From positions 151,993-215,992 of IMG/VR virus record IMGVR_UViG_3300033074_000233: DNA of 64,000 bases. The stretch is one strand, 5' to 3'. This document shows, in pieces, positions 3,462 to 45,044 of the stretch. The notes under the pieces were generated by a model. It saw only the letters and a program-made list of their open reading frames with translations, did not search any database and had not been told where the DNA came from. The stretch is from a virus (lineage: Duplodnaviria > Caudoviricetes). Within the stretch, counting starts at the first letter, position 1. Every line of letters starts with the position of its first letter. Position numbers and translations under genes: made by a program.

Positions 3462-4016
3462 ATGAACCTGCCAAATCTAACTAAGGAACAAGGACTCTTG
3501 TGGGGCAAGTCCTTAGTCTCGGATTCCAAGATTCTGGAGCAAGTAAACGTCCGTAGACTAATGATTGAACTGGAAAAGTTTGTGTCTGAGGCCCTGTCCA
3601 AAAAGTTGTTTGTAGATTCCAAGTTGGATCAACTAGGTATCTTCCAGCGACCTAGTATGCAGGAACAACTAGCCGAGTACGAAGGCTACTTGGACTTGAC
3701 TATGCGTAAGGCCAAAGACGCAGGTTATATATCGGAGTTCACTCGCCACACAAAAGGGTTCGTGGAGTCCTTCATTCACAAGCGTGATGGCACAATCATT
3801 GTTATGTGGCACGACGGGTCCATACAGGAAATGTCCTCGTGGAAGTACAAGCCCCGACGTAAGGCACGTGTGTGGGCTAAACAAGCCAAGCGTTGCACTA
3901 TAGGTTTCGACACTACGGTCAAGCCTGTAGTTTCTGTAAATTACGTCGAACTGAATCTTGTTCTCACCAAGCAAGGCGCAGACTTTAGTCAAACCAAAGG
4001 AGTTGAACCATGTTAG
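3462..4016 (+). CDS. stand-alone tail sheath C-terminal domain-like protein
   Basis: [12 protein letters not shown]...LF and [23 protein letters not shown] match the T4 gp18-type sheath C-terminus (INVRRL...P.RSINYI.LNF.AT..GADF); only 184 aa. Confidence 0.75.
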
Positions 4017-4213
4017 TTCTTACAAGGCGTGTAGGCGAGAAAATCCGAATCGGCGACGACGTTGTTATCACACTGCTAGGTGTTCGAGGTAATCAATACA
4101 AGGTTGGCATTGAAGCGCCAAACCACATTAAGGTTAACCGTGAGGAGATCTGGGAGCGTATACAGGAGTCCAAGCGTTTGAATGAGGAAGAAGAAAGCGA
4201 CAACGCTGCATAA
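4010..4213 (+). CDS. csrA: carbon storage regulator CsrA/RsmA homologue
   Basis: [49 protein letters not shown]. Confidence 0.95.
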
Positions 4214-4239
4214 TCAATCACCTACAAAGGTAAATCAAA

Positions 4240-4566
4240 ATGAAAGCCTTAACACTGATCTTCGCTCTGGTATTCTCGGTAGCAGCAAATGCCGAGGGTG
4301 TGGTATTCAAGATAGTCTCTGACAACGGCTCCGTGTTTAACTTCCGGGATAGTACCTGTCCGAACTCAAACTTTTTTCGTGCCGTTGCTGTTGAACCGAA
4401 CGGAAAAATGCACTTGGGGTGTTACGTTGTTGATGACGAGGAAAGAGTCGTAGCCGTTGCCTGGCCAGGCGGCGTTGATGGTCTTAGGCAGTACAGTTTT
4501 GATAACGTCGAAGTAACCAAATACGGAGAACGCTACTTCGATCCTGCAACTATGGAGCGTCGATAA
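4240..4566 (+). CDS. secreted hypothetical protein
   Basis: Sec-type signal peptide ending ANA, two Cys. Confidence 0.65.
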   Translation: MKALTLIFALVFSVAANAEGVVFKIVSDNGSVFNFRDSTCPNSNFFRAVAVEPNGKMHLGCYVVDDEERVVAVAWPGGVDGLRQYSFDNVEVTKYGERYFDPATMERR

Positions 4567-5459
4567 ATGACTCCTGAGGAAGATAGATACAGAAGGTACA
4601 AGGAGTTCAATCGGGATCGCTGGTCTAGTGCGGAACTTTATGCAGGCATCTTTGTCGTAGGCCTTATTACTTGTGGTGCCCTTTGGTGGCAATACTACAA
4701 GTTCTGCGAGTGTCGCCAAGTAGGCCACGGTATCCTGTATTGCTTAGCCAGTTTGTTTTAGGGAGGTTGGCATGAACAGGAACAAACTGATTATCCAGTT
4801 GCAAAAAGAACTCAAGCAAATGAAATGGGCTGGTTGCTCAGGCGATCAAGCAATGGACGAACGCTGGGACGAAGCCATCGCTGCTGTCCAGAACCGTATC
4901 GAACAGTTACTTTCACTGGACGCATTAGATACCGTGCGCGAGACTCTGATACCTATAGGTAACATTATACCTCCGTGTACTAGCCCTGAGCACAATCCAC
5001 CAAGTCAACTGTACGTTCCTCCTGATACCAATTATACCCACACTTGTCCATCATGTGGTGCTAAATCTACTCTGGGTACACCTATAATGTTTCTTGGCAA
5101 ATCACTTGGTGGACTAGATGGCCCTTGATATAGAAAAGCCAACCTTCACGTACTTCGTCAAAGATAAACCTGAGTGGATCAAACTTGGTAAGTACGTCAA
5201 CTGGCTGTTGAAAGAGCAGATTACAGGTGCGCCCGGTGTCTCTGGTACCTTTGCCTTGAAGATGTGTCCTGGTCCTGATGGATGTTTTCTCAGTGCCGAC
5301 TTTTGGGCTTCACCTCTTGGTCAAGGTTATCAAACATCTATCACGGGTTATAAGGAACTGGACGTATGGCAGCGTTCTGTAAAGTATGCAGACGATTTAC
5401 GCAAGCAAGCAATAAAATACATAGCCAAGACTGCCAAGAAAACCAAGAGGAAAAAATGA
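4567..5459 (+). other. three small hypothetical CDSs (4567-4761 TM; 4772-5128 Zn-ribbon; 5118-5459)
   Basis: Tightly packed ORFs with RBSs or overlaps. Confidence 0.6.
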
Positions 5460-6622
5460 AACAAACTAGTGCTGTCACCACTTATGGTTCTGTGGAAATG
5501 CCCAATAGCATTAAAGACTTCCTAGATAGAGGAGGTGTTAGACGCCACACTCTATATAAAGAGCCTCACGACGAGGATGATATTCCAAACGCAAATCCAA
5601 AGAACAAAAAGATTGTTGTCCTGTATCACGATAAGTGCTGGGACGGAACAACGGCTGCTTGGTGTGCCTGGCTCAAGTTGAAACACTCTGCTGTTTATAT
5701 TCCAGTGAACTACAAGAAGCCTCTGCCTAATGTAGATTGGACGCGAGTGAAACAGGTTTACATTCTGGACTTCTCCTATAACCGTGAAGTCCTTGACGAA
5801 CTCTATGCAGTAGTCAATGGCAACCTCGTTGTCCTCGATCACCACAAGACGGCCGCGAAAGAATTGAAAGACAGGCACTACGCTTGCTTCGCAAAGAACC
5901 TTTCCGGTGCTGGCATGTCGTGGATGTATTTCCATGAGAAGTTTACGCTGCTTGGCTTGTCTCGGTGCTCTCACCAAGGCTGGGGATCGAGCAAGGCCTC
6001 AGGCACAATGCCGAAATTTGTTTACTTCGCCCAGGATTACGACTTGTGGAAGTTCAAGGATAAGGATACCAAAGCGTTCCGTGCTGCACAGGATATGTTT
6101 CCTCGCACGATAGACACAATACAGAAGATACACGACGCTCGGGTTAACGGAACGAACCCGATGAACATGGACCAATTGATTAAAAAGGGCAAGTTCATCC
6201 TCGAACAGAAAACGAAGATGGTCAATGAAGCAGCCTCTACCGCTTTCAGAATGACCTTCCCAATTCCAGGTGTGAATGAGTCTGAGACACTACTTGCAGA
6301 AGGCTATGGTGTAATCTCCTCAAATCCGAGCATTACCTCTGATCTTGGCAACGTACTTGCAAAGCGCGCAGCGAAAGAAGGTCTGGGTGGCTACTCCGTT
6401 GTGTTCAGCCTAAACGGCAAGTCTATGCAAAGTGGTGAGGTCTTTCTGTCGATTCGATCCGTTAAGCACGTTGACATTTCGGACTTCGCTCTTGCTTATG
6501 GTGGAGGCGGTCATGCACAGGCTTCTGGCTGTACCTGGAACTACGCTTTCTTCCTGCAGTTCCTGGGTCACCTGGGCATAAAGGCCCTGGACAAACAAGA
6601 TGAAAAGGTTAAGAGGAAGTAA
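5456..6622 (+). CDS. DHH/DHHA1 phosphoesterase (NrnB-like nano-RNase)
   Basis: YHDKCWDG, ILDFS, VLDHHKT, QDYDLWKF, S.RS, GGGGHAQASG. Confidence 0.92.
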   Translation: MKQTSAVTTYGSVEMPNSIKDFLDRGGVRRHTLYKEPHDEDDIPNANPKNKKIVVLYHDKCWDGTTAAWCAWLKLKHSAVYIPVNYKKPLPNVDWTRVKQVYILDFSYNREVLDELYAVVNGNLVVLDHHKTAAKELKDRHYACFAKNLSGAGMSWMYFHEKFTLLGLSRCSHQGWGSSKASGTMPKFVYFAQDYDLWKFKDKDTKAFRAAQDMFPRTIDTIQKIHDARVNGTNPMNMDQLIKKGKFILEQKTKMVNEAASTAFRMTFPIPGVNESETLLAEGYGVISSNPSITSDLGNVLAKRAAKEGLGGYSVVFSLNGKSMQSGEVFLSIRSVKHVDISDFALAYGGGGHAQASGCTWNYAFFLQFLGHLGIKALDKQDEKVKRK

Positions 6623-6956
6623 GATACTTCGCAAAGGCTTCTGCGTGTTCTGTGGCTACAACGTAGTTCACACTGACACAATAATGCCTTCAAAGGAAAG
6701 AGAAACGCAATGCCTTCATTGCGGCTATCAAGAAACGTATTCTGTAAATAAAGATGAGAAGGACACAGGTGAAGGCGAAACGACCCAACTGGAAATATAG
6801 TTTGTCTGTGTCCTTGTTCAAGATATGTGCGGTGTTACTACTGGCCTCGTTTGCAACACCCGACGATTGGTCAACTAGCCTACAGTGTGCTTTCTTGACT
6901 CTGTTTATTCCCGCTTTCGCTTTATACACCTATTACTACGACGAGGAGTCACGAAA

Positions 6957-7784
6957 ATGCAAATGACCAGTTTCGCCGAGCGCCTGATTGCGTTCAACGA
7001 TATGTACCGCCTTCCGATCAGTCTGTCGCCGACGCTGAGTTGGGCACATGCTAGTAAGCACCCTCGTGGTAACAACACCGAAATTCCCAGCAGCGTTCAG
7101 GTTCACGAAGACTGGGCTGTTCAGGTCAACAACTTCTTCAACATTCTGCGTGAGGAACTTGGCGAACTGGACGACCTCCAAGAAATGTTTGACTCGGAGT
7201 CCGAAGCGGACGAGTTCGACATTCTCACGGCCATTGCTGACTGGCTGAGCGACATTGCCGTATACTCAATGTCTGAGGCTACCAAGTACGGCGTAGCGGA
7301 CTACGTTCCGAACTTCATCTATACAGATCATGCCTCACTTGGAGTTGCCTACTCGGAACTCGACCAGATGGAAAGCGCGATCATGTCAGTAGGCGAAGGT
7401 CTGACGCAACTGGTTGACTATCACGAAACGATCCTTGTTGGTCAGCCGTCAGCAAAGAACATGGCCAAGTTCCTTACGGCTCTTATCGCACGTTGCTTCC
7501 ACGAGGCCGAGCACTTCGGCTTCAACCTGTATGACACTCTGGAAATCGTAATGGATTCCAATATGTCGAAACTGGGCGAAGACGGCAATCCGATCTATGA
7601 CGAGCGTGGCAAAGTCAAGAAAGGCCCAGGCTACTGGAAGCCTGAGCCGAAGATTCGTGAGTACATCACGTCCTTGTTTGAATTGGATGATTCCGAAGAC
7701 GAAGAACTGGAAGACGACGAGGAAGATGAAGACGAAGAAGATGACGACCTCGAAGTCGATGGTACTGAGGAGATTGAGAAATGA
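6957..7784 (+). CDS. MazG/dUTPase-like NTP pyrophosphohydrolase with acidic tail
   Basis: LREELGEL..ADWLSDI and VMDSNMSKLGEDGNPIYDERGKVKKGPGYWKPEP; Asp/Glu-rich C-terminus. Confidence 0.85.
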   Translation: MQMTSFAERLIAFNDMYRLPISLSPTLSWAHASKHPRGNNTEIPSSVQVHEDWAVQVNNFFNILREELGELDDLQEMFDSESEADEFDILTAIADWLSDIAVYSMSEATKYGVADYVPNFIYTDHASLGVAYSELDQMESAIMSVGEGLTQLVDYHETILVGQPSAKNMAKFLTALIARCFHEAEHFGFNLYDTLEIVMDSNMSKLGEDGNPIYDERGKVKKGPGYWKPEPKIREYITSLFELDDSEDEELEDDEEDEDEEDDDLEVDGTEEIEK

Positions 7785-8254
7785 AACTGCCTACTGGTCA
7801 GACAATAATGCCGCACCAGTTTAACGTAACCTTCAATGGAAATCCCGTTGAAGGTCTTACGGAATGGATTGACGATGTTTGCATCGACTACGTTGAACAG
7901 AAAATCGGCCTGTCTTTCCTGCTTGCTTATGACAAAGACCCCGATAACACACTGTCCCACCAGAAGTTAGTGGCTCTTATGTCTGTTCCAGAGACAACCA
8001 TGGAAGTGCATATCCTTACCCCGTCTAACGAGGAGGTATGTAAAGAAGTATTCCATAAATTGAAAATTGCAGAACTATACTACGGGTTGAACGCTTGCCT
8101 TGTATCCGGCGACAACTCAACTGTTCTTGACAACGAAGATGAGGAAGAACCAGACACTAGACCACGCAAAGTATCTATGTTCGACAACCAGGTGAATGTT
8201 TCTGCTTCCATCAAATTCGGAGTAACTAGCAATGGCAACGGGCAACTCTCCTGA
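7781..8254 (+). CDS. hypothetical protein, weak tail-tube-like pattern
   Basis: ATGA overlap; FNVTF...MEVHILTPSNEEV...LYYGLN is only loosely reminiscent of gp19-type tubes. Confidence 0.55.
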   Translation: MKLPTGQTIMPHQFNVTFNGNPVEGLTEWIDDVCIDYVEQKIGLSFLLAYDKDPDNTLSHQKLVALMSVPETTMEVHILTPSNEEVCKEVFHKLKIAELYYGLNACLVSGDNSTVLDNEDEEEPDTRPRKVSMFDNQVNVSASIKFGVTSNGNGQLS

Positions 8255-8819
8255 AGTATCCGGTACAGCGAACGTGCCCATGCACCTGCGTTTCAAGTGG
8301 TGGCGTGACCGTGTATCCTACAGCATCACCTCGCGTCTATCCCAGTTCTTTCTCAGACTCGCCTTTCGTTTTGGCGACCGTGAGAGCAAGCTGGTAAAAC
8401 ACGCAGAAGCCGAGATGCGCCGCGCTGGATTGTACGACGCTGACGCCGACTACGGTGGAATGCTACCACACGCGGTAATGCAACTGGTACGTATTCACTC
8501 CATGCAAGGTCACAGTGGCTTCTCACATGGCTACACTCTGGCCTTGTTCAACAAGGTAGTGAACTTCCAAGTGCTCACTCCGATCACGGATGACCCAGAA
8601 GAATGGAACGAATGCTCGATCATGATGGGTCGACCTAGCTGGCAGAACAAACGTCAGTCTTCTTGTTTCTCCGATGATGGTGGCAAGACGTATCGTGATA
8701 TTAACGAACGTCCCATACACACGGACGAAACTGGAGAAACTTATACCAAAAGTAGTGATGAGGCACCGTTGCATATATCTAAGCCACATAAGGGTAATGT
8801 GGATGGCCAGCCCGGTTGA
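8232..8819 (+). CDS. conserved phage hypothetical protein
   Basis: QGHSGFS, LTPITDDPEEW, QNKR.S..F.D motifs. Confidence 0.7.
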   Translation: MATGNSPEVSGTANVPMHLRFKWWRDRVSYSITSRLSQFFLRLAFRFGDRESKLVKHAEAEMRRAGLYDADADYGGMLPHAVMQLVRIHSMQGHSGFSHGYTLALFNKVVNFQVLTPITDDPEEWNECSIMMGRPSWQNKRQSSCFSDDGGKTYRDINERPIHTDETGETYTKSSDEAPLHISKPHKGNVDGQPG

Positions 8820-8987
8820 ACACAAACTTGAGGATGTAGAGGCTAGGTTGAAAGACCTACGTGGACACATACCTCCGAACCTTGAGTTTGCTATTCAGGA
8901 CTTGATAGCGGTAGCGCGCCATCAGCAAAACGAGATAGCCCAGTTGAAGCGCCGCGTCCCTGAGGATGACGGTCGTTAGGAATCTAT

Positions 8988-9208
8988 AACATTCACAACC
9001 ATCAGAAACCAAGTCAGCCAAGGGCTTGTCAAAACTGCGGGCAATTTTCTTGGCAGTGGATAGGTAACTGCTCGTTCTTTCCCGTAGTCCTGCAATTCGC
9101 TTGCACAATCTGGCTCTGACCCATGAGTGCGGAAATAGCGGTTGTGTTTGTTTACTGTGGACCCGCCGAGTCCCAGCGTGAGGTGTGTGGCTGACTTCAC
9201 CCCTCACG
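8988..9208 (+). ncRNA. candidate structured RNA / cis-regulatory leader upstream of denV
   Basis: Non-coding gap with multiple nested and pseudoknotted complementarities including G-U pairs; see findings. Confidence 0.5.
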
Positions 9209-9237
9209 GATAAGGCATATATTAGTGGAGGTCAAGT

Positions 9238-9675
9238 ATGACCAGAATAAACATTATAGACCCAGCCGAGTTGTACGATCAACACCTAATGGCCGAGCGC
9301 AAAGAGATACTCCAACTCTGCGGCTCCCTCAGACGTTCGCTCGCCAGTTCTCGTGGCGTAAACATTTCCCGCATTCCTTCTAAGTTCACCCTTAATCGTG
9401 GCCATGTCCTTTTCTTCTATGACAAGGGGTATTACCTTCACCAGCGTTTTCGTGCTGTGACGAAGGAAATGATTAAGCGTGGCTTCAATCCCGATCAAAG
9501 CATCCTGTTCCCAGCTACCTTGTGGCCTAGCCATCTCTATAACGACTGGTCTCCCTCTAACGAGGATGAGGCCATTATTCGTTTCCGCATCGCCCATAAA
9601 CTGGCCATGAAGCCTAACTGGTATAAAAAGACACCAGTAAAAACACACGTTATTGCGTGGGCAAGGGCTCAGTAA
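9238..9675 (+). CDS. denV: pyrimidine dimer DNA glycosylase / endonuclease V
   Basis: MTRIN..DP.EL.DQHLMAE..E, FTLN.GHVLFFYDKG.YL, K.AMKP.WY; GGAGG RBS. Confidence 0.95.
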   Translation: MTRINIIDPAELYDQHLMAERKEILQLCGSLRRSLASSRGVNISRIPSKFTLNRGHVLFFYDKGYYLHQRFRAVTKEMIKRGFNPDQSILFPATLWPSHLYNDWSPSNEDEAIIRFRIAHKLAMKPNWYKKTPVKTHVIAWARAQ

Positions 9676-9703
9676 TTAGACCTCTCAAAAACAGCGCCTT
9701 TTA

Positions 9704-9848
9704 AGCAAACTTTTGATTCTATTGACTACCTACACCAACGCTCTAAAATGGCCGTTTTTACGCGAGAAAAACGCTTGTTTTTAGTGCTTTTTTATGCTAT
9801 ACTGTAGATGCTAGAAAACGTCGAAAATACGGCTATCAAAAGTTTGCT
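9704..9848. repeat. 14-bp perfect inverted repeat flanking a promoter (cassette 1)
   Basis: AGCAAACTTTTGAT 9704-9717 and ATCAAAAGTTTGCT 9835-9848. Confidence 0.9.
9775..9803 (+). promoter_or_regulatory. sigma70-type early promoter
   Basis: TTGTTT-17 bp-TATACT with extended -10 TG; a second TTGACT-16-TAAAAT at 9722-9749. Confidence 0.75.
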
Positions 9849-9888
9849 AGATTCACAGCCCACTAGATCATACGTTAGGAGATACAAC

Positions 9889-10827
9889 ATGGTTAACCTC
9901 AAACTGGTACAGGTTACGGATGACGTGGACTTCGTGTCTACGGAATTGCTGGAGGCTTGTGAGGAGGGCGAAGTGTCGTATATCGTCCAGGCCCACACAA
10001 CCGGTGAAGTCCTTGTATGGTGTGCTGCTGGTCCAGAAGGCGAACTGCTTGAAGTGGACGAGGAAGACGCGGTACCGTATATCGCCAAAGCCCTGTTCCC
10101 GAACTAATTACAACCCAAACCCTACGTTAGGAGATAGACATGAACCGTGTACAATCATTCATCCTTGGCGCAGTCCTCACGGGTTTCGTTGCGTTGGCTT
10201 TCACTGCACACGAAGTCAATGAGGAAACGCATCGCCTGATGGTATTCAAGGAAGTAGGCACGATGCTTCTGCAAGGCCAGAATGAAACGGAAATCATTAT
10301 GAATGTGAAGTCCACGACGGACCTCAACGAAGTACGCGCAGCCTTCAACTACTACAAGGAGTCAACGAAATGAAAACCCTCTGGATGGTGAAGCATAAGG
10401 CTTCTGGTACCTTCGAGACCCAACCGAAAGCAACGGCGAAAGCCGCGTGGGAAGAGTTCTGGTTCAAGATGGAACGCCTGAACCTGCACAAGAAAGCGGC
10501 CGAGCAAGACTACGACGCCGTTGAAGTAACGGTAGCGGAAACTGGTTCTACTTGCAACAACAACGAGTGGTGAATATCATGGTAAACGCTGGCAAACTCG
10601 ATTCCTTCATGCAGCACTATGCACAGGCTCTGCACAAGGCCGTAGCCGAACACAACGCGGAATACGGATATCCGGTTGAGCACGTTCCCGTTGTTGTGAA
10701 AAAGATGAAACTGGCTATCGAAAATGGTTCATACAACCATGACGGTCGCGGATTCAAGGGCGCATGTAAGGCGCTCGGTATCAAGTACACCAAGAAAGCA
10801 ATCGAAGAATACCTGGAGAGGAAGTAA
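9889..10827 (+). other. four small early genes (9889-10107, 10140-10373, 10370-10573, about 10579-10827)
   Basis: Strong GGAG RBSs and overlaps directly after the promoter. Confidence 0.65.
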
Positions 10828-10829
10828 CC

Positions 10830-11471
10830 ATGGCTCGTACAAAAACCCAGTTCGACCGCGTTATGGAAGACCTGTCATCAAAAGTTCGCGCTGCTCTCGG
10901 CGTGTTGATCGGCACCAACACAGCCGTATACGTTGCACCTGCTGACGTAGCCGAGCACATTCTTTCTCCATACAATGGCTTGTCAGAAGACGAACGTGAG
11001 GAAGTGGTCAAGCGCGTAGGTGCGTTGCTTTCCACAATGTCGCGCAAGGGCAACTGCGACATTTACCGCACCGATCACAAGATTCAACCCAAGGCTATCA
11101 ATCGCAAAGCGCAGTACGGCTATCGTATCGGTCCTGTGCTCACTCCTATTCGCACTACCGAGGTGCGACTTCAGGAGAAGATGACGGCTGACATGGTTGC
11201 ATCGGCTACTGAGGATCCGATTGCTTTCCTGCTGTCGATCAAAGCCCAGTTGCCGTTGTTGAAACTGAACGCTCTGATGGTTGAGATTTGCGGTGAGATT
11301 CAGAACCGTGTCATGGAACAACACGTCGCCATGTCCCAGTTGGACAAGCGCATGAAAGAACTGTCAGAAGACTTCAAGAGTTTGTCAGGAGTAGCCAATG
11401 AAGAAGAAGAGGAGCCGATTCAAGAGCAAGAGTCAATACAAGGACGAGGCAAGAAGAAAGCAAGAGGCTGA
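10830..11471 (+). CDS. putative winged-helix DNA-binding protein with coiled-coil tail
   Basis: VAPADVAEHI...VKRVGALLSTMSRKG..IYR pattern. Confidence 0.5.
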   Translation: MARTKTQFDRVMEDLSSKVRAALGVLIGTNTAVYVAPADVAEHILSPYNGLSEDEREEVVKRVGALLSTMSRKGNCDIYRTDHKIQPKAINRKAQYGYRIGPVLTPIRTTEVRLQEKMTADMVASATEDPIAFLLSIKAQLPLLKLNALMVEICGEIQNRVMEQHVAMSQLDKRMKELSEDFKSLSGVANEEEEEPIQEQESIQGRGKKKARG

Positions 11472-11799
11472 GGCGCTGGCCCGACAGACACAACGTCGCC
11501 TAGATCGCCTTGTTCCTGACAAAGAGGTCAAGACCAAGACGTTCGATGTGTACAAGCCCAAGGCTGTATGGCGTCCTGAACCTCAGAGCATAAAGTCAAA
11601 GCGTAAGGGCGTTGAGCCTGTGCGTAAGCACGCCAAGACTGTAAAGTATGAGGGTGAGATGGCGCAGCGCGAAAGCGCAGCCCAAGAGGAAGTAGAAGCC
11701 AAGAAAAAGCGTATTGCGCCTATGTACAACAAGGGGGCATACATGCTGATAACTGACGGAACTGATCCAAAAGAAATTGGCCGCAAGAACCCACTTTAG
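11398..11799 (+). CDS. basic conserved phage protein
   Basis: C-terminal IAPMYNKGAYMLI motif recalled from myovirus hypotheticals. Confidence 0.6.
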   Translation: MKKKRSRFKSKSQYKDEARRKQEAEALARQTQRRLDRLVPDKEVKTKTFDVYKPKAVWRPEPQSIKSKRKGVEPVRKHAKTVKYEGEMAQRESAAQEEVEAKKKRIAPMYNKGAYMLITDGTDPKEIGRKNPL

Positions 11800-11815
11800 A
11801 TAAGAGGTAATAGAC

Positions 11816-12364
11816 ATGACTACCGAAACCAAAGTAAACTTCAACATCACCAACTGGGCTGACGAGTTCTGGTCGTTTACCGAACGCAGGGACAAGCAGG
11901 GCGAGCCGCTTCCGATCACCGAAGCCCAGCGCGTGGGCTTCTGTCTGAACGATGCAATCGGCATGATTGAAGGTATCCCGGAAGACTTCGGTTACGCGAT
12001 TGCCGAAAAACGTGCAAAGTCCTGTGGCCTGAAGTGTACGCCCGGCTTCCTTGTTTGCATTGCGTCGATTGCGAACACTCCGGGCGAGATCGTTATGTTT
12101 ATCCATGCGTTTCGCCACGAGCAGGACGCAAGCAACGCTGTCGGTGAGGCCACCGAACTCCTGAAGCGTGGCTACAACGCGGCTGACTTCTTTCACCTCA
12201 CCAAGAACGTCACGCCCAGCAAGGACCACATGCACAAGATGTGGGACGCGCAGAAGGGTGGTCCGCAGTCTCGCGTTGACAACTGGCTGGACTTCCTCGC
12301 TACGGAGCCGCGCTTCATCAAGGCTATTCGTGACGGCTACTGCGAAATGCCGGAGTTGTTGTGA
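11816..12364 (+). CDS. hypothetical protein
   Basis: GAGG RBS, strongly biased codons. Confidence 0.7.
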   Translation: MTTETKVNFNITNWADEFWSFTERRDKQGEPLPITEAQRVGFCLNDAIGMIEGIPEDFGYAIAEKRAKSCGLKCTPGFLVCIASIANTPGEIVMFIHAFRHEQDASNAVGEATELLKRGYNAADFFHLTKNVTPSKDHMHKMWDAQKGGPQSRVDNWLDFLATEPRFIKAIRDGYCEMPELL

Positions 12365-12365
12365 T

Positions 12366-12563: not shown

Positions 12564-12565
12564 CC

Positions 12566-14478: not shown

Positions 14479-14490
14479 CACGGAGACACT

Positions 14491-35179: not shown

Positions 35180-35370
35180 ATGATAGGGAGAGCCTTCGTT
35201 CACGGAGTGTGGTATAGAGTGACCACCTCCGTAAGAGGGAAATTCAAAATAGACAAGAAAACGAAAACGACTCCTGGGAGTATTTCGACACGGTAAAGAG
35301 TGAAGGCAAAACTCCACAGGAAGTAATGCAGGACTACTTTAAGCAGAAGGAGAAAACCAATGAAGCGTAG
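35180..35370 (+). pseudogene. small gene frameshifted at an A run
   Basis: MIGRAF...KKTK stops early; adding one A near 35264-35267 continues as NDSWEYFDTVKSEGK up to the next gene. Confidence 0.5.
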
Positions 35371-35825
35371 ATCATTCTTGGCAGGGTTGCTCGCTCTGCC
35401 CTTCGCACCTCTTGCTTTCGGCAAAGAGGAAGTTCAACTCAGCAGACAGCACCAGAAGGCTATCCTGTTCGGGGGGGCGTTATGGAACGGTGAACCTGCC
35501 TGTGGGTGCAGGCAAAACGAAGTATGCTTTCGTTATTGGCGAGACAGCCCAAGAAGCGCGCCAGTACATTGAACGGGCTAAAGCCCATCCCGAGGCGACC
35601 CCTATCCGATACTTCACTGTGTCCCTGAGTAGTCGTATGGCTTATACCCAGTTAATGGGCCACAAAAACTGTCACATCATTGTCGCAGGTAAAGTGGGCA
35701 GGACCTACGAAACTCATGTAAACCTGCAGAAGGTGAAAGAGGAAGCGCGACATAGGAATACCAACTGGTACTATCCGCCTGAGAACTCTGTCATGCTCAA
35801 ACTACATGAAGGGACAACAGTATGA
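35360..35825 (+). pseudogene. Tat-signal-like protein with P-loop-like segment, frameshifted at G7
   Basis: Removing one G from 35471-35477 joins MKRRSFLAG...AILFGG to RYGTVNLPVGAGKT... Confidence 0.55.
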
Positions 35826-36014
35826 AAGCCACGAAGCACACAGTAACGATAACCGTAGAGGTGTTGAGCCTTGACACGGTTCCGGGTCTCTTGCAGGAAT
35901 GCTCGGAACAGATGCGTAAGGAATACGTCAACGGCGAGTTGAGTGCCGACGACGGCGACAAGATAAAGTGGGAAGTCAAATCAGTTCCAGTCGAATTTTA
36001 ACAGGAGAAACACC

Positions 36015-36404
36015 ATGGATTACTTCGTACCCGCAGTAGTTTCAACTATCCTTCTAGTAGTAGCCCTAGGCTTTCTGGTAAAGGTCTGGATGGAAAAAAG
36101 GTCCAACGAAAACTACTACAAGGAATGCCTCAGGGAGAAAGACGAATATAGAAGGGATATTGTAAAGAAGCATGATACGCAAATGATGGAACTGAGGGAT
36201 GAATACAGAGAGAAAGTTGCAATCGTTCGTGTCGGAGACAAGGAACACTTGCCCTTGCCAACAGATGCTGACCTTGCCTTCGTTGAGAAGGAGTTGACAC
36301 GCAAAGGCTTCGATCCTGAAAAGGTACTTGTGGTTCCTTGGCACCTCACGTTTGACACTATCCACAGTCTGGCTAGCGCGAGGAAGAACAAAGATGCAAC
36401 GTAG
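36015..36404 (+). CDS. membrane-anchored protein with portal-like segment
   Basis: N-terminal TM, coiled coil, then VRVGD...PTDADL..VEKEL...FDPE..LVVPW. Confidence 0.5.
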   Translation: MDYFVPAVVSTILLVVALGFLVKVWMEKRSNENYYKECLREKDEYRRDIVKKHDTQMMELRDEYREKVAIVRVGDKEHLPLPTDADLAFVEKELTRKGFDPEKVLVVPWHLTFDTIHSLASARKNKDAT

Positions 36405-36654: not shown

Positions 36655-36856
36655 CTATGGGCCTCGTCATTCTGGAACTCGAACTGGATTACGTGCCTGT
36701 AAGTCGTGAGGTCTTTAAGTCCAAAATTCCTAAGAACGGCGAGGACTATTACGTTCTTGAGGGTCAGAATCAAAGATACTACACTGACAGTCGCGGAATA
36801 ACTGACGGTGTGTTCGACTACGTAACCAACAAATACTGGCTGAGAAAACCCTTAGC

Positions 36857-37135
36857 ATGACTTCCACACACATAGTAGATTACCACGTTGTTACCAACGT
36901 AACTATAGATGCCTTGATTGCTGACGTGAAGGTGGCTATAGGTCGAGGCTGGCAACCCATTGGAGGCATGACTTCCTCTTCCCACCCAACCGGAGGCTAC
37001 CTTGAACTAAGTCCTGTTGGCTATGGTGTAAAGGGAATTCTTCTGTTCTCACAGGCTCTTGTAAAGTATGCGCCTAAGTTGGATACTGAACGTATGAGTA
37101 CCGGCACTTATGATTCTTCCAAAGCAGTTCCGTAA
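36857..37135 (+). CDS. DUF1737-like protein (paralogue of 12366-12563)
   Basis: YHVV...DV.VAIGRGWQPIGG...FSQALVK. Confidence 0.65.
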   Translation: MTSTHIVDYHVVTNVTIDALIADVKVAIGRGWQPIGGMTSSSHPTGGYLELSPVGYGVKGILLFSQALVKYAPKLDTERMSTGTYDSSKAVP

Positions 37136-37679
37136 CAATGACGTTATACCAGACGAAGCCATGAAGGGTAAGGGTACTTGTCACTACAAAGGCAAGTTCT
37201 TACCCTTTAGGCAGGTCTACGATCACATTGCCAAGAAACACGAGGTCGTGGACTACGGAATTGCATACAGTCGCTATTTCGGGGTCTATATGTGGGACCT
37301 GCTAAAGGCCTGCACCGTCCCAGTGAAATATGCGACCGTAGGCTTCGTTTGTAGCAAGTGTATACCCGACCCAAAAGTAGCGTTCCGCATCACCATGGAC
37401 ATGATTGATAAGGCCGGATTCACTGGCTACAACATGATGGTCCTGGAAGACGATCCACTTATAGAGGAGCATTTCTTCGATAAGCAGTCTACCAGCGTGG
37501 TTTGCTACGACTTCATCCACGTTATGACAGATCGCAAGCCCAAGAAAGCGATGGCAGATCATCTTGTAAAGTATGCGTCACACATAATCGTCTTCTGGGA
37601 CAACGAGGACAAGAGGTGTGAGTACATAGTTCGCAAGGCCAAAGAAGCAAACAAAAAGGTAAAGGAGTTCTTCATATGA
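37110..37679 (+). CDS. degenerate SLOG/YspA-like protein
   Basis: C-terminal LVKYASHIIVFWD...YIVRKAKE..K.V. Confidence 0.5.
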   Translation: MILPKQFRNNDVIPDEAMKGKGTCHYKGKFLPFRQVYDHIAKKHEVVDYGIAYSRYFGVYMWDLLKACTVPVKYATVGFVCSKCIPDPKVAFRITMDMIDKAGFTGYNMMVLEDDPLIEEHFFDKQSTSVVCYDFIHVMTDRKPKKAMADHLVKYASHIIVFWDNEDKRCEYIVRKAKEANKKVKEFFI

Positions 37680-39318
37680 GCAACGACAATCCGCTAGCCA
37701 AGATAGACACCAATGCGTTGCGTGACCGTGTGGCCGCGCAAGTAACCAACTCCTTCGGTATGTTGATTCCCGAGGAACAGTTTTCCGCAATGGTCGATGC
37801 ACAGATCAAGGCCTTCTTCGAGACCCCAACAACCCTAACCTTTGAGCGAGGCGGCGGCTACAACAGCGACACATATACACTCAAGGGTGCCCAAGTTACG
37901 ATGTTCCAGATGATGGTCTGGAATCTTGTGCGTCCTATGGTACAAGCAAAACTTCAGGAGTACATGAACCAGGGCGAAGGCAAGAAAGCCCTTGACGGAT
38001 TCCTGAAAGACCTATTCGAGGCAAAAGAGTTCAACGACCAACAAGTCATGGGTGTACAGCGCCTTATGGTAGCCATGACTGCTGGTTTGTTCCAGCAGAT
38101 TGGACAGACAGCGGTCATGAACTTCCAGTCCTCGTTGGCTAACGCGGCAATGAACTCACAGATGCCGCAGTTGGCAAATGAAATCTGGAGAATACCATCA
38201 TGATCGAGCCCTGCGTAGAAACCATTGTATGGAATAGCGTAGGAGAGTTGAAGCCACCACAAAGGAAACCAGTAGTTGTATGTGTTGACAACGACTACGG
38301 ACGTTCCATTTTTAAGGCTGAATGTCGCACAGACATAAATGGATTCGACTGGTGGACTGCAACCAACGGCATTGGAAGTTGCTTAGTAAAAGACGACCAC
38401 GCTTGGGCTATTGTGACTGGACCAAGATCACAGGAGAAAACTACATGAATACCAAAAAGGAATACCTAGAAGTAAAGGCAACATTTTCCACGTCATTCAT
38501 GTCCGTGTTCGGTATGGCTGTTGAGAAGGCCTTACTGAAACTTCCTGAAGAATGGGGTTCCTCAGGTGACTCGGAAACCGATTTTATCTGGAAGATGCTT
38601 ATTCAGGCCATGAAGAAGAACGGCCAGTGCAGTATGTACTCCCAAGAGGAGGGATCAGAACTGGTCAAGGTTACCTACGATGTGAACTACACGGAAGAAG
38701 GTGAACAGGCACCAGAGTTTACCGCACACTGGCGTAGAGAGAAAACCATCAAGGACAAAGAACGCGAGGAACTTGAGCGCAAGCAAGACATTCGACAGAT
38801 GGGTAAGTTAGCGGAAAAGCACAGGCTTAGCATCCACATGTTCGACACGCCGGAGACTTACGGTCGCTTCGGTACTGTGCAGCACACGGCTGTCTCAGGT
38901 CCGCCAAGCCAGACCGGCACCTACCTGTTGTGGATTGATCCCAACGAAACGGGAACAGAAAATGCTGGGTCGTTTTACTACGACGCCGAAAAGAACGCGT
39001 GGTACGATCACGCTCCCAACAGTACCGACTCAGACACCGTCATGATACCAATTACGTGTCCTGCCTTCACCGCGTACATGGGTCCGATTCCACCTAAGGT
39101 AGGGTAAGCACATGGCTACGGACTTTCAGCGTGGCGCTCGGGCCATGTTTGATTGCTTGATGGAGCGTGCCGCCAACAACTTCCACGCTAATCCTGTAAT
39201 TAAGGAAGCGTGTGAAAAGGAAAACGCAATCATAGAAAAATGGGCTGCTGATGCACTCGAAACGGTTGACCCAGTAGGCGTGATCTTCAACAACGAACCC
39301 ATTATTCCAGTGGTCTAA
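37676..39318 (+). other. hypothetical CDSs (37676-38203, 38200-38448, 38445-39107, 39112-39318)
   Basis: ATGA-coupled ORFs with RBSs. Confidence 0.6.
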
Positions 39319-39428
39319 TAATGACTCCTGAAGAACACATTGAGAAATACGGACATGAAGCCCATTGCAGCATCATGTTCCCAGCAGCCCCTTGTTTTTG
39401 TGACTGTAAAACCGGAGTGGAGAGAAGA

Positions 39429-40328
39429 ATGGATAACCATACGTACCAATACCACCAACTGCTAGAGCATATCCTTGCCAAGGGAACCTGGAAGGGTAAC
39501 CGGACAGGCGTCAGGACGCTTTTCGTTCCGGGCTATCACTTGCGTTTTGATTTGTCTAAAGGCTTTCCTATGGTTAATACCAAGAAGGTTCCTTTCAAAT
39601 CCGTGGTCGGCGAGTTGCTCTGCTTCTTGAAAGGATCAGACAACGCGAAAGACTTTCGTGACCACAAGTGCAACGTGTGGAATGCCAATGCAAATGATCC
39701 CGGTAGGCCGGACGCGCCGAATGCCTGGATTAAAAGTCCGTACCGCCGAGGTGAAGACGATCTCGGCCGTATCTATGGCATTCAGTGGCGTCATTGGGCA
39801 GGTCACGAAAAGGATTACGACCAAGTCCAGAAACTGCTGGATACTCTGGAAAAGAATCCACTTGATCGACGCATGATTGTCAACGCGTGGAACGTAGAGG
39901 ACATTTACGAAGGCAAGATGGCATTGCCGCCTTGTCATGTCATGCACCAAGTTCTGTACGAACCTGAGACCAACAAACTGCACATGACCATGTACCAGCG
40001 GTCGTGCGACGTGTTCCTTGGCATTCCGTTCAACATCGCGTCCTATGCGGCCCTGCTGACCTTGTATGCCCGAAGTGCTGGTATGGAACCGGGAGAACTG
40101 AGCCTATTCTTGGCTGACGTTCACATCTACGAGAACCATATGGATCAGGTTGCCGAGCAACTGTCTCGCACACCTTATCCGAATCCGGGCTTCGTTTGCA
40201 GCGTTCAAGACAAGAAGGTCTGTGGTCAGGACCTGCTTGCACAGATTTACAACCTTGACGTAGTAAACGATTTCAAGGTTGTGGACTATGAATGCCATCC
40301 TGCTATCAAGGCAGACATGGCTGTATAA
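39429..40328 (+). CDS. thyA: thymidylate synthase
   Basis: NRTG, GELL.FL.G, DLGRIYG.QWR, DRRMIVNAWN, MALPPCH, YQRSCDVFLGIPFNIASY, DVHIYENH, MAV end; alternative in-frame start 39321. Confidence 0.97.
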   Translation: MDNHTYQYHQLLEHILAKGTWKGNRTGVRTLFVPGYHLRFDLSKGFPMVNTKKVPFKSVVGELLCFLKGSDNAKDFRDHKCNVWNANANDPGRPDAPNAWIKSPYRRGEDDLGRIYGIQWRHWAGHEKDYDQVQKLLDTLEKNPLDRRMIVNAWNVEDIYEGKMALPPCHVMHQVLYEPETNKLHMTMYQRSCDVFLGIPFNIASYAALLTLYARSAGMEPGELSLFLADVHIYENHMDQVAEQLSRTPYPNPGFVCSVQDKKVCGQDLLAQIYNLDVVNDFKVVDYECHPAIKADMAV

Positions 40329-40720
40329 CTAGAGGTGAAACATGAAAAAGTATTACGACTGGCCACTTAAAACAAGGCTGTGGTTCTTTGTGCGTGACCT
40401 GTTCAAGCCACGTTACGCACTGATCGTTGAACTAGAAAACATGCCGAACCTGGAGTGGATGTTCAACAAGGATGTGCCTCCTTACAAGACGGTACCTGTA
40501 ATCATGCGGGTTCCGTACAAGCGGCCATTCCTCATGCCATACAACTTCTTCGTCAACAACATCAAAAAGGACTTCGGTCCCACGACGCTGATTTTCTTTG
40601 CCACACGAATCACTCTGTACGACCTGTCCCGTAGCCTAGGCTCGGCCATGTCTCATAACGTGGCCAATGCGATTATATATGACCCTGAGCCTAAGCAAAC
40701 GCAACCTGAAGAGGTACAAT

Positions 40721-40755
40721 ACTAATTTAATGAGGACAGCGTATACTGTAAAGTA
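40721..40755 (+). promoter_or_regulatory. tandem putative phage promoter motifs ACTAATTTAAT and CTGTAAAGTA
   Basis: ACTAATTTAAT also intergenic on - strand at 59081-59091. Confidence 0.5.
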
Positions 40756-41023
40756 GCGTTACAACAAACACAATAAAGGAGTCAGTGTTATGGCTAGACT
40801 GACCGGAGAAGACTTTGAATGGCGCTCCAAGGCCTACTCAAAGATTAAGACCATTCACGCACAAGGCCACAAGACCACGCACTTGAGGCTTATCGAAACT
40901 GAGGTAGGTGCAAATACAATGCACCTGCTTCAAATTCTTGATGGAGTCCTAGAGGAATTGATTGAACAAGGCCTTATTACTGAGGTTGTTAGTGGCACAG
41001 TTTACTTTTCTCAAGGAGGCTGA

Positions 41024-41479
41024 TTGGTGTCGAAGCAAAACGCGATCCTTAAACCGCAGAGTCCGAAATTGATTCAGTTCTGCAAACAAACCTTCAAGCA
41101 ACACCAGATATACAAAAGTTGGTTCTACTTTGCCGACAAAAAGGTCAAGATAGTTTTGGATGATCTTGGCGAGAGTGACCTGTATCCAGCAGGTGAAGTG
41201 CAGATAGCCAAGTTAGAGGTTGTTCCAGACTCAAGAGGTAATGGGCTAGCGTCGATTGCACTAAAGGCCCTAACTAAAGGTGCTGACATTTACGAGGTTC
41301 ACTTGTCATTACACCCGGCTGCCTTTTGTGACAGAGACAATGCGTTGACCCAGAGACAGTTAGAGAGTTTCTACCGACGCTACGGATTTCGTGCCGAACG
41401 AGGATACGCAAAGCACGAACCTGGGCACGGTAGACAGATCACCAGCATGATTAGAAAGCCAGAAGGACTAAAACGATGA
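41024..41479 (+). CDS. GNAT acetyltransferase
   Basis: V.PDSRGNGLAS..L, L..FYRRYGF. Confidence 0.85.
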   Translation: MVSKQNAILKPQSPKLIQFCKQTFKQHQIYKSWFYFADKKVKIVLDDLGESDLYPAGEVQIAKLEVVPDSRGNGLASIALKALTKGADIYEVHLSLHPAAFCDRDNALTQRQLESFYRRYGFRAERGYAKHEPGHGRQITSMIRKPEGLKR

Positions 41480-42832
41480 ACGCCAAAGATAAAGCGGTTT
41501 ACAAACTTGTTCGTGCTGCCTTCCGTATACTGGATGACAGCGAAAACAACGACGACAGCATTGTCATTGATTGTGACATAGCAGGAGGCGACCTTCGTCG
41601 AATGGGTCAGGCTCTCGATGAACTGGGCATTGAAAGCCTCGAAGACGTTGACCGAGTATTCGGTGAAAAGATTCACACACCAGAGTGCGCCAAGAATACA
41701 ATGTCCCTTTTGAAGTGTAACTGTGACGGAGAGTTTGGAGTTCCAACATGACACTATGCGCCTGTCTCGGTCCACTGAACGGTGAGCCGCACGGCCCTTG
41801 CGCTATGAGGTCACGTGGACTGAAAACAAAAGCAGATGAGCCACTTACTGACCAAGAGAAAGAAAAAATCAACAAGGCACTTGGACGTGTCTTCGGAATA
41901 ACACACTACACAGTAGAGAGGATCAGAGATGAGCACATTCAAGATAGGTGAGGTGGCGTTTCTCGTGGGCATTGAAGGACCTGATGCACACTTAAACGGA
42001 CTTGAGGTGACAGTTACCTCAGGCCTATATCGAACAACGGGCCTTGAACGAATTACAGGTAAAGTTATTACGGCCATGGTCTATGACATAGCCGGAGCCG
42101 AGCCTATTAACCGCGTTACACCCGATCACCTGCGTAAGCGTCCAGAGAAAGGCGATGAAACGTCTTGGGAAACAGTAGAAGCAATTTCCGGGTGGAAGCC
42201 CAGCACAGTAGAGGTTCCAAATGGCGAAGATCAAAGAGTTGAAGTTCCAAGTGTCGATCACTGCCAACTTGGGCAATTATGAGTCCGTGAAAATTGAAGT
42301 AGGCGAGTCTGTTGACCTCGAACCTGGGGACAACGCCGCCAAAGAAATGGCCCGTTTGGTGAAGCGCGTAAAAGCGGTAGCCAACGAAGAGGCAGAAACA
42401 CTACGAACGGAACTCGGGAACGAAAAAGGATCGAGTTCCAAAAAGAAATAAAGGAAGCCCGCCATGAACAACAATAAAGAGCAAGACGATAGGTTGGAAG
42501 AATACAGTAACATTGCCTTTGAGGTCAAGAAGGCCAACGGCAAGAAGAAGGACTACTACATAGTGATACGGCACGACAGAGCCGTTCATTGCGTAGCAAG
42601 GGTGTATGCAATCGGTGTGGCCTTCTACGAAACGGACCATGAGAAGTTTCAGGAACACCTTAAGAAGGCCGCGTATGAACCTGATACAGCCATCCACACA
42701 TTAGGAACAGACGCAAAGAAAGACGACGAATACACAGGTCGAGTATATCTTCCGTCACATATTGATGCCTACGAACACCACCGTGTAGTACGCGACGTGA
42801 CGGGTTTCATTCTATAAATAAAGGCTCACAGT

Positions 42833-43573
42833 ATGAGTACCCACGAAAAGCGCAAAATGGTTACGGTCTACGACATTCTGATCTTCCTTAAAGACTTCAA
42901 AGGCGATGACACAATCGTAGCCCTAGGAAACCTATATGGTCTGACAGAGGCTGTAGCTGAAGGACTGCTGGATGCCACGGAGGACCTCTCCTATATTGAC
43001 GAACATGACTGCCTAACTGAGAAAGGCGTTAAGTATCTGGAGGACTGCTCGAAGGTTCCTGCTGAGTATGGGGTGCTTACACTAGTACGTGGTCTTCCAG
43101 GCTCAGGTAAAACGGAACTTGGCAAGAGACTGGTTGAGGCCTCGAGGTCTACAGTCCATGTAGTCCATCTTGAATCTGACCAGTTCATGGTGGATGAGAA
43201 CGGCCAGTACAAGTTCCAGCCAGACAAGGTCAAAGCAGTCAACGTGGAATGCGTTGCACAGGCTGAGAAGTGGTTGCGTCAGGGTTATGACGTTGTAGTG
43301 ACCAACGTGTTTGCCCAGTATTGGGAAGTGAAGCCGTACTACGATGTTGCTGCGGAACTCGGTATCAAAACGATCCTGATTACTATGCAGTCGCAATTCC
43401 ACAGTGAGCACCGATCCTCACGTACCCGCCATCAAATGGTAGAGAAGTGGGACGACATTTTCCTGCCACGCAGTTGGAACTCGCACAACAAGGACAAGCC
43501 TGTTGAAGTGCCTGGTCCTACGGCTATCGACGACCTAATGAGAGAGGCAGTGAACATGCCTCTGGAGGATTGA
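42833..43573 (+). CDS. AAA_33/PNK-like P-loop kinase
   Basis: LVRGLPGSGKT, HLESDQF, VVVTNVF..WE..PY. Confidence 0.85.
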   Translation: MSTHEKRKMVTVYDILIFLKDFKGDDTIVALGNLYGLTEAVAEGLLDATEDLSYIDEHDCLTEKGVKYLEDCSKVPAEYGVLTLVRGLPGSGKTELGKRLVEASRSTVHVVHLESDQFMVDENGQYKFQPDKVKAVNVECVAQAEKWLRQGYDVVVTNVFAQYWEVKPYYDVAAELGIKTILITMQSQFHSEHRSSRTRHQMVEKWDDIFLPRSWNSHNKDKPVEVPGPTAIDDLMREAVNMPLED

Positions 43574-43888
43574 ATGAGTATGCCACATACCTGTAAGTGT
43601 GGGACGTGTGACCACGAAATGGGTGGTCCTCTAGTATTCAATCCTAACTCACCTTTGCTCTCGGACGAAAAACCTGATCCAGTAAAGTGTGCCGTGCGTG
43701 GATGCCGCAACTTTAGCGATGGCGGAACTTTTCATGGCGAGATTTGTTCGGCCTGCTTTGACATGCTTGTGTCCGGAGAAGTACACAAGTCCAGCCATAC
43801 GTTCATAGGCGGACTGTATCGTGAGGCGCTTGAACGTAGAAACAGCATCAATTCACAAGGCAAGCCTGTTCCCGAAGAGGACGATTAA

Positions 43889-44812
43889 ATGAAAGAAGGT
43901 CATTTGCAAGTAGCCAACGCCGTTGCCGACATGCTCGCCCGTGCCAAGAACGACGATCCAGAAGCCGCAAAGATTCGGTTGAAGCGTGAGCAAGAGGCCA
44001 AAGACGAACGCCTGAAGGCAGTTATTGCTTCGGCTAAGGCCGATCCAAAGGCTACGCTTGCCTTCAAGGTTTCGTGTGCTGACGAACTACACACGGCCTG
44101 GTACCGTGATAGTTTCCTTGCCAAGTTGCTGAACAGTGAGCAGATTGACGCGGTCTCGACAAAAGTCCTCATCTGGTGCAACACGATTACTCAAGGCATC
44201 ACAGTTCCGGATGAGCCTCACCTGCTTACGGAACTGTTCGTGGACATGCAGAACGCCGTCATGTACTCGGACGCCTGTCTGCTTGAGGAACTGAGCAAGA
44301 TTGTAGAGACCAAAGAAATCCTGCCAACGATGTTCGCGGACGTACTGGTATCCGAACTGGATAAGAACTGCTATCGGTACGCCCTAATCAACTCGGGCAC
44401 TTGGTCTCACCTGCTTAGCAATCCGAAGATACACCACAACTTTGATCCGGTAAGTAAGCACGAACTCCTGCTTACAGGTATGCTTGGTCTGTATGGACCA
44501 CAGACCAACGTAATTTTCAATGGACCCGCGAAGAACGAGGCTGAGTCCAAAAAGTGTGTCGTATATACGGATGCTTTCCGCCATCCTCAGGCCAGATCGT
44601 TCAAGTACAGTAGTCCGTCAGACGTATTCCTGTTTAAGACAGGCCTCAAGTATGACGGCGACATTACCTTTGAACAGGAAGACAACATCACCTACGGAGG
44701 CACGGACAATCCAATTAAGGGCCTGAAACTCGTTGTCAAACTCGACGAGTACGTCATGACCTCAGTTTATAATTGTGCAATCCGGGTTAAGGAGTTCTCC
44801 AATGCAACCTGA
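43889..44812 (+). CDS. divergent major capsid protein-like paralogue
   Basis: FDPVSKHELLLTGMLG and TDAFRHP resemble recalled RSL1/Lu11-type MCP motifs; lies outside any head operon. Confidence 0.6.
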   Translation: MKEGHLQVANAVADMLARAKNDDPEAAKIRLKREQEAKDERLKAVIASAKADPKATLAFKVSCADELHTAWYRDSFLAKLLNSEQIDAVSTKVLIWCNTITQGITVPDEPHLLTELFVDMQNAVMYSDACLLEELSKIVETKEILPTMFADVLVSELDKNCYRYALINSGTWSHLLSNPKIHHNFDPVSKHELLLTGMLGLYGPQTNVIFNGPAKNEAESKKCVVYTDAFRHPQARSFKYSSPSDVFLFKTGLKYDGDITFEQEDNITYGGTDNPIKGLKLVVKLDEYVMTSVYNCAIRVKEFSNAT

Positions 44813-45044
44813 GCGTAAGGTGTTTCACATTGATACGGGTCCTGAGCCTATTACTGAGGCACAGTGTTCTGCGCTGATAAAGGCCTTCCATCGAGAGAAC
44901 CCAAAGTTCATCGAGGAGATTACTCGGCTCAAGGACATGCCTGATTCCGAAATTGATTTCAGCGACATTCCTGAATCGAAGCCAGGCGATTGGGATAACG
45001 CAACACGACCTGGTGCTCTTGACGTACAGAGGAAGCCAAAATGA
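44802..45044 (+). CDS. chimeric micro-protein: T4-portal-like peptide plus BrnA-antitoxin-like N-terminal segment
   Basis: PERKVFHIDTG followed by LKDMPDSEIDFSDIPE....W.NA.R.G. Confidence 0.55.
   Translation: MQPERKVFHIDTGPEPITEAQCSALIKAFHRENPKFIEEITRLKDMPDSEIDFSDIPESKPGDWDNATRPGALDVQRKPK

Follow-up and report, generated by a model that had tools for sequence, protein, structure and literature searches.

The 64,000-nucleotide stretch analysed here (the window) is the terminal 64 kb of one 215,992-bp contig of a jumbo phage (IMG/VR record IMGVR_UViG_3300033074_000233, positions 151,993 to 215,992), and it carries two plus-strand genes related to the phage's own structural proteins, a capsid-like gene at window positions 43889-44812 and a sheath-like gene at 3462-4016. 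A self-search of the genome found a second sheath fragment (genome 119044-119388) and a 160-aa gene bearing a portal segment (genome 87304-87786), both outside the window. The phage thus has four or more distinct accessory genes derived from parts of its own virion-protein families: a paralogue of the major capsid protein (MCP), two copies of parts of the sheath C-terminal domain, and a portal-segment gene. Homology holds for all four, and selection at the protein level for the two in the window. A sequence-only reading of the window had proposed a dispersed set of six truncated structural-protein look-alikes, possible decoys for phage-sensing defences. The capsid-like and sheath-like genes bore this out on comparison with the phage's own MCP and sheath, the other four could not be established, and the members are not conserved together, so the set is smaller than claimed and does not form a unit.

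The capsid-like gene

The gene at 43889-44812 encodes a 307-aa diverged paralogue of the phage's own MCP, as the sequence-only reading had it. Residues 32-234 of its product align with MCP residues 68-295 at 25% identity (BLASTP, E 2e-13), and three of the four members of its family match the major head protein family phrog_2522, with a best E of 2.4e-5. Two motifs, DPVSKHELLLTG and VYTDAFRHPQ, are identical in protein sequence in the paralogue and the MCP, and their codons differ at synonymous sites. Recent gene conversion between the two genes was rejected on this ground, and the motifs are therefore kept by selection on the protein and not by recent copying. The idea that the paralogue is the phage's actual MCP was also rejected, as the real MCP gene lies at genome 68493-69578 on the minus strand and its product is 45% identical to the phiRSL1 MCP (45-46% to the Motura and phiRSL1 MCPs). 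A plus-strand open frame at genome 68427-69515 (locus L004) shadows this real gene, and a longest-ORF (open reading frame) gene caller errs on strand there.

The family is small, with an exhaustive search returning P0006 (80% identity), P0007 (61%) and P0008 (~30%), and beyond these only true MCPs. Matches in a tblastn search of the phage collection were MCPs only (Motura, phiRSL1, BCSR5 and the PhiXhv phages), at one place per record, and the phages of the phiRSL1 group are therefore without a second copy; no counterpart besides the real MCP was found in phiRSL1, Motura or BCSR5. A separate search of viral and metagenome contigs for loci related to the capsid-like gene, the sheath-like gene and the ORF at 7781-8254 found none.

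The family alignment shows no counterpart in the paralogue for MCP residues 1-50, gaps of ~17, 6 and 26 columns (~45 residues) opposite MCP residues ~120-180, and an 18-aa insertion after the LTGxLG motif. In an AlphaFold model (pLDDT 66), five N-terminal helices run almost directly into a long helix at residues 110-139, the helices of residues 1-102 being joined to it by 7 residues only, and by HK97 topology the segment missing before this spine helix would be the E-loop. A complete HK97 MCP fold, with E-loop segment and N-terminal arm, is therefore not what the gene encodes. Residues 142-296 of the model align to lambda gpE, LME-1, Bxb1, T4 gp23, T4 gp24 (PDB 1yue) and encapsulin with Z values of 4-6.8 (VIA), those for HK97-fold MCPs being 5-6.8, and Foldseek returned nothing at E≤0.001 (all E>0.5), with top rows that were nearly all phage capsid proteins. 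These middling Z values agree with the sequence evidence for MCP kinship.

The ratio of non-synonymous to synonymous substitution rates (dN/dS) is 0.16 for the capsid-like gene, measured against its 80%-identical homologue, and 0.12 for its upstream neighbour, a kinase-like gene with a Pfam AAA_33 match (42833-43573, plus strand; synteny kept in relatives L017-L022). With 0.15 for the sheath-like gene, these values are similar to those of neighbouring genes and indicate purifying selection. In all relatives seen, the capsid-like gene remains an open reading frame after the AAA_33 gene, down to 29% identity. Compared with the lineage of relative L020, it is 29% identical, its neighbouring genes 47-72% and the MCP 85%, so that by these identities it diverges far faster than either. 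It follows thymidylate synthase and the AAA_33 gene, beside nucleotide-metabolism genes and 127 kb from the head genes, and so does not sit in the head module of protease, ATPase, virion protein, MCP and sheath.

When MCP and paralogue were folded together the score was 0.40, with 0.00 for the best control. Of 80 solved complexes 58 attained the mark, as did two of 110 mismatched pairs, and at ≤0.60 it was attained by just seven of the 80 and by the two mismatched pairs that passed. Between runs, 29% or more of the contacts agreed, and the partner's pLDDT was 72 or higher. This gives weak support to predicted binding of the paralogue to MCP, and the predictor may be recalling solved capsid lattices. 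Scans for Sigma-70 promoters and terminators near the capsid-like and sheath-like genes stayed at chance level, and PADLOC had no match for any candidate.

Sheath and portal segments

At 3462-4016, where a sheath C-terminal domain had been proposed, both ends of the domain are recovered, weakly but significantly, and a match to the whole domain is not. The 184-aa product carries the first and last segments of the domain on either side of an unrelated middle of ~100 aa. The phage's own sheath (876 aa; genome 55495-58125, minus strand) matches phrog_23 at E 5e-83 and has PF17482 at residues 758-860, and two collinear BLASTP matches tie the sheath-like product to it, residues 17-45 against 755-783 (E 0.004) and 147-177 against 838-868 (E 1e-4). 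The product also matches the tail sheath family phrog_23 (E 0.007). When a hidden Markov model (HMM) of seven sheath C-terminal sequences was scored on the genome's complete set of 3,724 six-frame ORFs, the sheath came first, the ORF at genome 119044-119388 second (E 6e-11) and the sheath-like gene third (E 4.7e-4), with all remaining ORFs at E>2. The ESM Atlas model of the sheath-like product (pLDDT 0.40, zero feature matches) was too poor for use.

Homologues P0002 and P0003 are 87-89% identical to the sheath-like protein. The start of a CsrA-like regulator gene (4010-4213, plus strand; PF02599; phrog_9500, E 1e-26) overlaps the stop of the sheath-like gene, and this overlap is kept in all relatives seen. 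Within the 3' end of the sheath-like gene, 77 nt before the CsrA-like gene, lies TTCTGTAAATTA (3933-3944, plus strand), a copy of the promoter-like motif TCTGTAAA(G/T)T, which recurs ahead of many plus-strand genes. In relative L025 (P0004) the first two thirds of the gene are deleted and the last 50 codons, including TTCTGTAAATTA, are fused to a different, unrelated N-terminus. This relative shares a sample with the L017 contigs, which bear a homologue of the capsid-like gene.

The second sheath fragment, of 114 aa, matches phrog_23 and phrog_10581 at E about 1e-9 and retains the middle of the C-terminal domain, whereas the sheath-like gene in the window retains its two ends. It is 41-43% identical to cyanophage sheaths and 29% to the phage's own sheath, and is therefore not a recent local copy.

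The portal-segment gene (genome 87304-87786; locus L005:11304-11786, minus strand) matches the portal family phrog_16240 at E 2.5e-9. The first 64 residues of its 160-aa product copy portal residues 273-337, and against the portal core at 282-326 (45 residues) identity is 51% (E 3e-13). A sequence search of the PDB gave no portal relative of solved structure. The product ends in a Cys/His-rich tail (C-x4-C ... C-x2-H) with faint Pfam hints, and this tail may bind zinc.

In the phage collection, the 160-aa protein matches true portals and also a 154-aa gene, gp209, in BcepSaruman and BcepSauron. In BcepSaruman, gp209 (NC_049850.1, 118317-118781; RefSeq name 'portal protein') lies within a run of small hypothetical genes; its product has two tandem copies of the portal segment and a further match to phrog_11049, whose function is unassigned. 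A comparable arrangement was found through the capsid-like gene in a metagenomic protein, P0010, in which a partial-MCP unit of ~145 aa is duplicated in tandem (internal z 32; each half z 17 against the MCP of the phage studied here).

Promoter-like motifs

The 12-mer CACTAATTTAAT occurs in 20 copies in the genome at ≤2 mismatches, mostly 34-60 nt upstream of the first gene in minus-strand runs. Relatives L020 and L021 retain it. It marks the portal and sheath runs, several runs of unassigned function and two endonuclease genes. The capsid-like gene lies in a run (40790-46572) headed by a composite promoter-like element on the plus strand at 40720-40758, made up of a CACTAATTTAAT copy, TACTAATTTAAT, and then CTGTAAAGTA, 70 nt before the first gene; a matching composite element heads the equivalent operon in the distant relative L021. 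Another CACTAATTTAAT copy heads a three-gene operon whose last gene is the portal-segment gene. By the genes it precedes, CACTAATTTAAT may be a late promoter, and its presence ahead of both operons is therefore a hint of late rather than early expression. If it is truly a late promoter, the capsid-like protein would be made alongside the virion proteins and not early. A second recurrent promoter-like motif, TCTGTAAAGTA, lies mostly ahead of plus-strand genes. Within the window, copies of the two motifs lie at 40720, 59092 (minus), 3933, 5376, 6741, 24581, 29763, 37060, 40747 and 48408 (minus).

Remaining candidates and the surrounding genome

The two portal-like peptides named by the sequence-only reading fared differently from each other, and neither gave a portal-family profile match. 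The one at 36216-36362, inside a 129-aa plus-strand ORF (36015-36404) with a hydrophobic, membrane-helix-like N-terminus, is unsupported, having no portal PHROG or Pfam match, being missed by the portal-segment HMMs and giving p 0.06-0.36 in shuffle tests. The other, at the start (RKVFHIDTG...) of an 80-aa plus-strand ORF at 44802-45044, is borderline: a local alignment to BcepSaruman gp209 gave z 4.2 (p 0.002), while shuffle tests against the segment in the phage's own portal and in the 160-aa protein gave p of about 0.05-0.06, no PHROG or Pfam portal match was found, and two portal-segment HMMs missed the ORF at E≤10-20. Its second half is covered by phrog_30665 (function unassigned), and the ORF is absent in relative L017.

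The supposed P-loop fragment at 35360-35825 (plus strand) proved to be two overlapping ORFs in different frames, 35360-35572 and 35412-35825, with no Pfam (E≤0.1) or PHROG (E≤0.01) family and no similarity to either half of the phage's own terminase. The second of these ORFs holds the peptide GAGKT only, outside any recognisable NTPase domain that would make it a Walker A motif, and the claim is left without support. The 70-aa product of the first ORF starts MKRRSFLAG..., its RRSFL resembling a twin-arginine signal peptide. For the 157-aa ORF at 7781-8254 (plus strand), which had been called possibly tube-like, the ESM Atlas model (pLDDT 0.50) has tail-tube families of the gp19/TTP type (gp19, TTP_2) among its nearest structures at a TM-score of about 0.5. 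The sequence has no Pfam or PHROG tube match, neither a tube HMM nor hhalign gives more than a 13-residue match, and a single-sequence AlphaFold2 model reached pLDDT 35; the predicted tube likeness is a lead only.

The phage is distant kin of phiRSL1, Motura and BCSR5. Sheath identity to phiRSL1, BcepSauron/Saruman, BCSR5 and Lu11 is 35-39%, and megablast of two window stretches gave zero matches in the phage collection, which holds no close relative. The phage's own virion genes were located and are all on the minus strand; besides MCP and sheath, they comprise the portal (genome 2343-4238; phrog_16240, E 2e-165), the tube (genome 54976-55482; 41% identical to the phiRSL1 tube) and a large terminase in two pieces (genome 7332-8429 and 4490-6100) separated by an endonuclease gene. 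The gene order ATPase, virion protein, MCP, sheath is common to this phage, Motura and phiRSL1.

Like the large terminase (genome 4490-8429), the DNA polymerase (genome 17342-21877) is encoded by two genes (loci L001 and L002). Five other genome sites carry sequences 31-54% identical to the opening ~54 residues of the terminase C-half, a stretch that looks like the C-part of a split intein. About 20 bases at the contig start recur at its end. The Motura head-maturation protease matches in three pieces (genome 1509-1291, 417-4 and 215992-215816) that straddle the contig ends and cover residues 54-107 twice, and just downstream of these pieces lies a gene for a 503-aa HNH/homing endonuclease (window 62288-63799). 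On the minus strand of the window, a 932-aa protein (48922-51720) and a 623-aa protein (51734-53605) have blocks in common at 63-66% identity, present twice in the larger protein, and both are highly variable among relatives, as tail-fibre genes are. A 734-aa protein (window 55761-57965, minus strand) is 27-37% identical to the annotated topoisomerase IB of PaBG, phiRSL1 and Motura, its gene lying within a minus-strand block of otherwise structural appearance.

Interpretation and rival explanations

Each of the four products would retain the best-conserved contact segment of its parent, having lost the parts needed for joining a lattice, a ring or a tube-bound sheath. This combination therefore suggests that they act through the contacts of the parent, as mimics; such interface mimics would bind the usual partners of the parent segment and titrate or cap them. 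We consider a mimic that uses the parent's contacts the leading account of these genes, at somewhat less than an even chance, with a role in conflict as its likeliest form, in which a host sensor would be occupied, or a rival phage or tailocin hindered. Fine-tuning of the phage's own assembly is a close second to the conflict role. Fast divergence, patchy presence and the tandem-repeat proteins of other phages lean towards conflict; the promoter motif and the weakly supported co-fold point more to a part in assembling this phage's own virions. That the capsid-like and sheath-like genes sit in accessory regions, are under purifying selection and are patchy among relatives is circumstantial evidence that fits a conflict role. 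As for the decoy function proposed by the sequence-only reading, the sequences of the fragments are compatible with it and also with its absence.

Several observations weigh against interface mimicry or the decoy reading. In a published screen (bioRxiv 10.64898/2026.01.04.697583), Avs sensors are reported to recognise conserved core folds, so that a copied fold could set one off as readily as it could block it. The CACTAATTTAAT copies upstream of the capsid-like and portal-segment operons suit a part in late assembly at least as well as they suit a decoy made early. The model of the capsid-like protein is of medium quality (pLDDT 66, Foldseek E>0.5, all VIA Z<8). The relation of the sheath-like gene to the sheath is weak, with hhalign giving E 0.0018 at a probability of 15% and Pfam Phage_sheath_1C (PF17482) no match at E≤0.1, and the promoter-like motif for the CsrA-like gene could explain part of the conservation of its 3' end. 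The tandem-repeat proteins of other phages are analogies and not tests, and four of the six members first listed were not established, nor are the members conserved as a set.

The strongest rival makes the capsid-like protein a minor virion part or assembly factor of the phage itself, produced late with the structural genes, a role that the sheath and portal pieces may share. The capsid-like protein could then be a capsid protein of vertices or other special sites, like T4 gp24, and the sheath fragments could cap or chaperone sheath subunits. The CACTAATTTAAT copy at window 40720 upstream of the capsid-like operon speaks for this, since the same motif heads the portal, sheath and other virion-gene runs and the composite element is kept in a distant relative, as do the retention of the most conserved MCP motifs and the co-fold, weak as it is, with its score above that of the best control. 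On the other side, the protein is without the E-loop segment that lattice members use, has changed much faster than MCP relative to the same lineage (29% against 85% identity), has no counterpart in phiRSL1, Motura and BCSR5, whose virions are similar, and is encoded 127 kb from the head genes beside genes of nucleotide metabolism; the sheath-like gene, moreover, is dispensable in one relative. On balance we regard a virion part or assembly factor as rather unlikely, if still a serious contender.

We think it quite unlikely that the genes kept the fold only and took on a new enzymatic, regulatory or membrane role unrelated to the parent contacts, in which the capsid-like protein might partner the AAA_33 kinase-like neighbour and the sheath-like protein the CsrA-like regulator. 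Both pairs are conserved, with reading frames that overlap or abut, and the capsid-like family has diverged strongly, the common motifs having decayed in P0008. The best-conserved parts of both proteins are nevertheless the best-conserved segments of their parents, and Pfam, PHROGs and PADLOC gave no catalytic or other family signal for either.

That the pieces are by-products of homing endonuclease traffic and illegitimate recombination, kept merely for overlapping signals of neighbouring genes such as the promoter-like motif and the CsrA-like gene start region within the sheath-like gene, is very unlikely: the several endonuclease insertions and fractured genes of this genome, the survival in L025 of just the last 50 codons with TTCTGTAAATTA, and the absence of the ORF at 44802-45044 in L017 would fit it, but dN/dS is 0.15-0.16 across whole genes, the capsid-like gene stays open and syntenic down to 29% identity, no endonuclease gene was seen beside the capsid-like or sheath-like gene or among the three checked neighbours of the fragments at genome 119044-119388 and 87304-87786, and cyanophage sheaths resemble the second sheath fragment more (41-43%) than the phage's own sheath does (29%).

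Comparison with known systems

The capsid-like gene resembles that of T4 gp24 in being a second HK97-fold gene in a phage genome, diverged from the MCP (gp23 in T4). The T4 gp24 gene adjoins gene 23, and gp24 is a full member of the lattice. The capsid-like protein differs from it in lacking the E-loop segment, in being encoded 127 kb from the MCP gene, in evolving much faster than the MCP, and in its absence from related phages.

For the poisoning or redirecting of assembly, the best precedent is Ccm of SaPIbov5, a capsid-protein homologue that redirects capsid assembly of the helper phage (PMC8569155; PMC5052747). Like the capsid-like gene, it is an MCP homologue outside the head module, and it acts on MCP assembly through MCP-like contacts. 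Ccm, however, comes from a satellite and targets its helper phage, whereas the capsid-like protein is phage-encoded beside the phage's own intact MCP.

A functional model of the decoy idea is offered by DSAD1, a phage inhibitor of the tail-tube sensor DSR2 (PMC10981675; PMC11087589; PMC11263360), which silences a sensor otherwise triggered by a virion protein. The abstracts on DSAD1 do not present it as derived from the tube, whereas the genes here are copies of virion proteins.

The portal segment has its nearest likeness in gp209, a small protein with the same conserved segment as the 160-aa gene, and in gp209 the segment stands twice in tandem and without the Cys/His-rich tail. The T7 portal Gp8 acts on RelA and SpoT (PMC13483052), and this second job of a portal surface against host physiology makes a use for a free portal segment conceivable. 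The T7 work concerns the whole portal ring, and nothing ties the copied segment here to RelA or SpoT.

A search of the literature found no paper describing copies of virion proteins as decoys. A broader idea, which we consider unlikely, is that these genes belong to an undescribed accessory class of jumbo phages in which the most conserved segment of a capsid, portal or sheath protein, sometimes in tandem, serves as a non-activating mimic or sponge for the host immune sensors or rival elements that recognise precisely that segment.

Significance

Whichever use the copies have, the analysis yields four concrete genes and two related proteins in other phages, and a recipe for finding more cases, in which profiles of a phage's own virion proteins are run against each genome. 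Many bacterial defences are triggered by conserved virion proteins such as capsid, portal and tail tube. If cut-down copies of these proteins do counter such sensors, they would constitute a new and easily searchable class of counter-defence, and if the decoy reading is true the copies would also reveal the sites that the sensors recognise. Should the copies tune the assembly of their own phage instead, they would show how specialised parts arise in large virions through the duplication of core-gene pieces.

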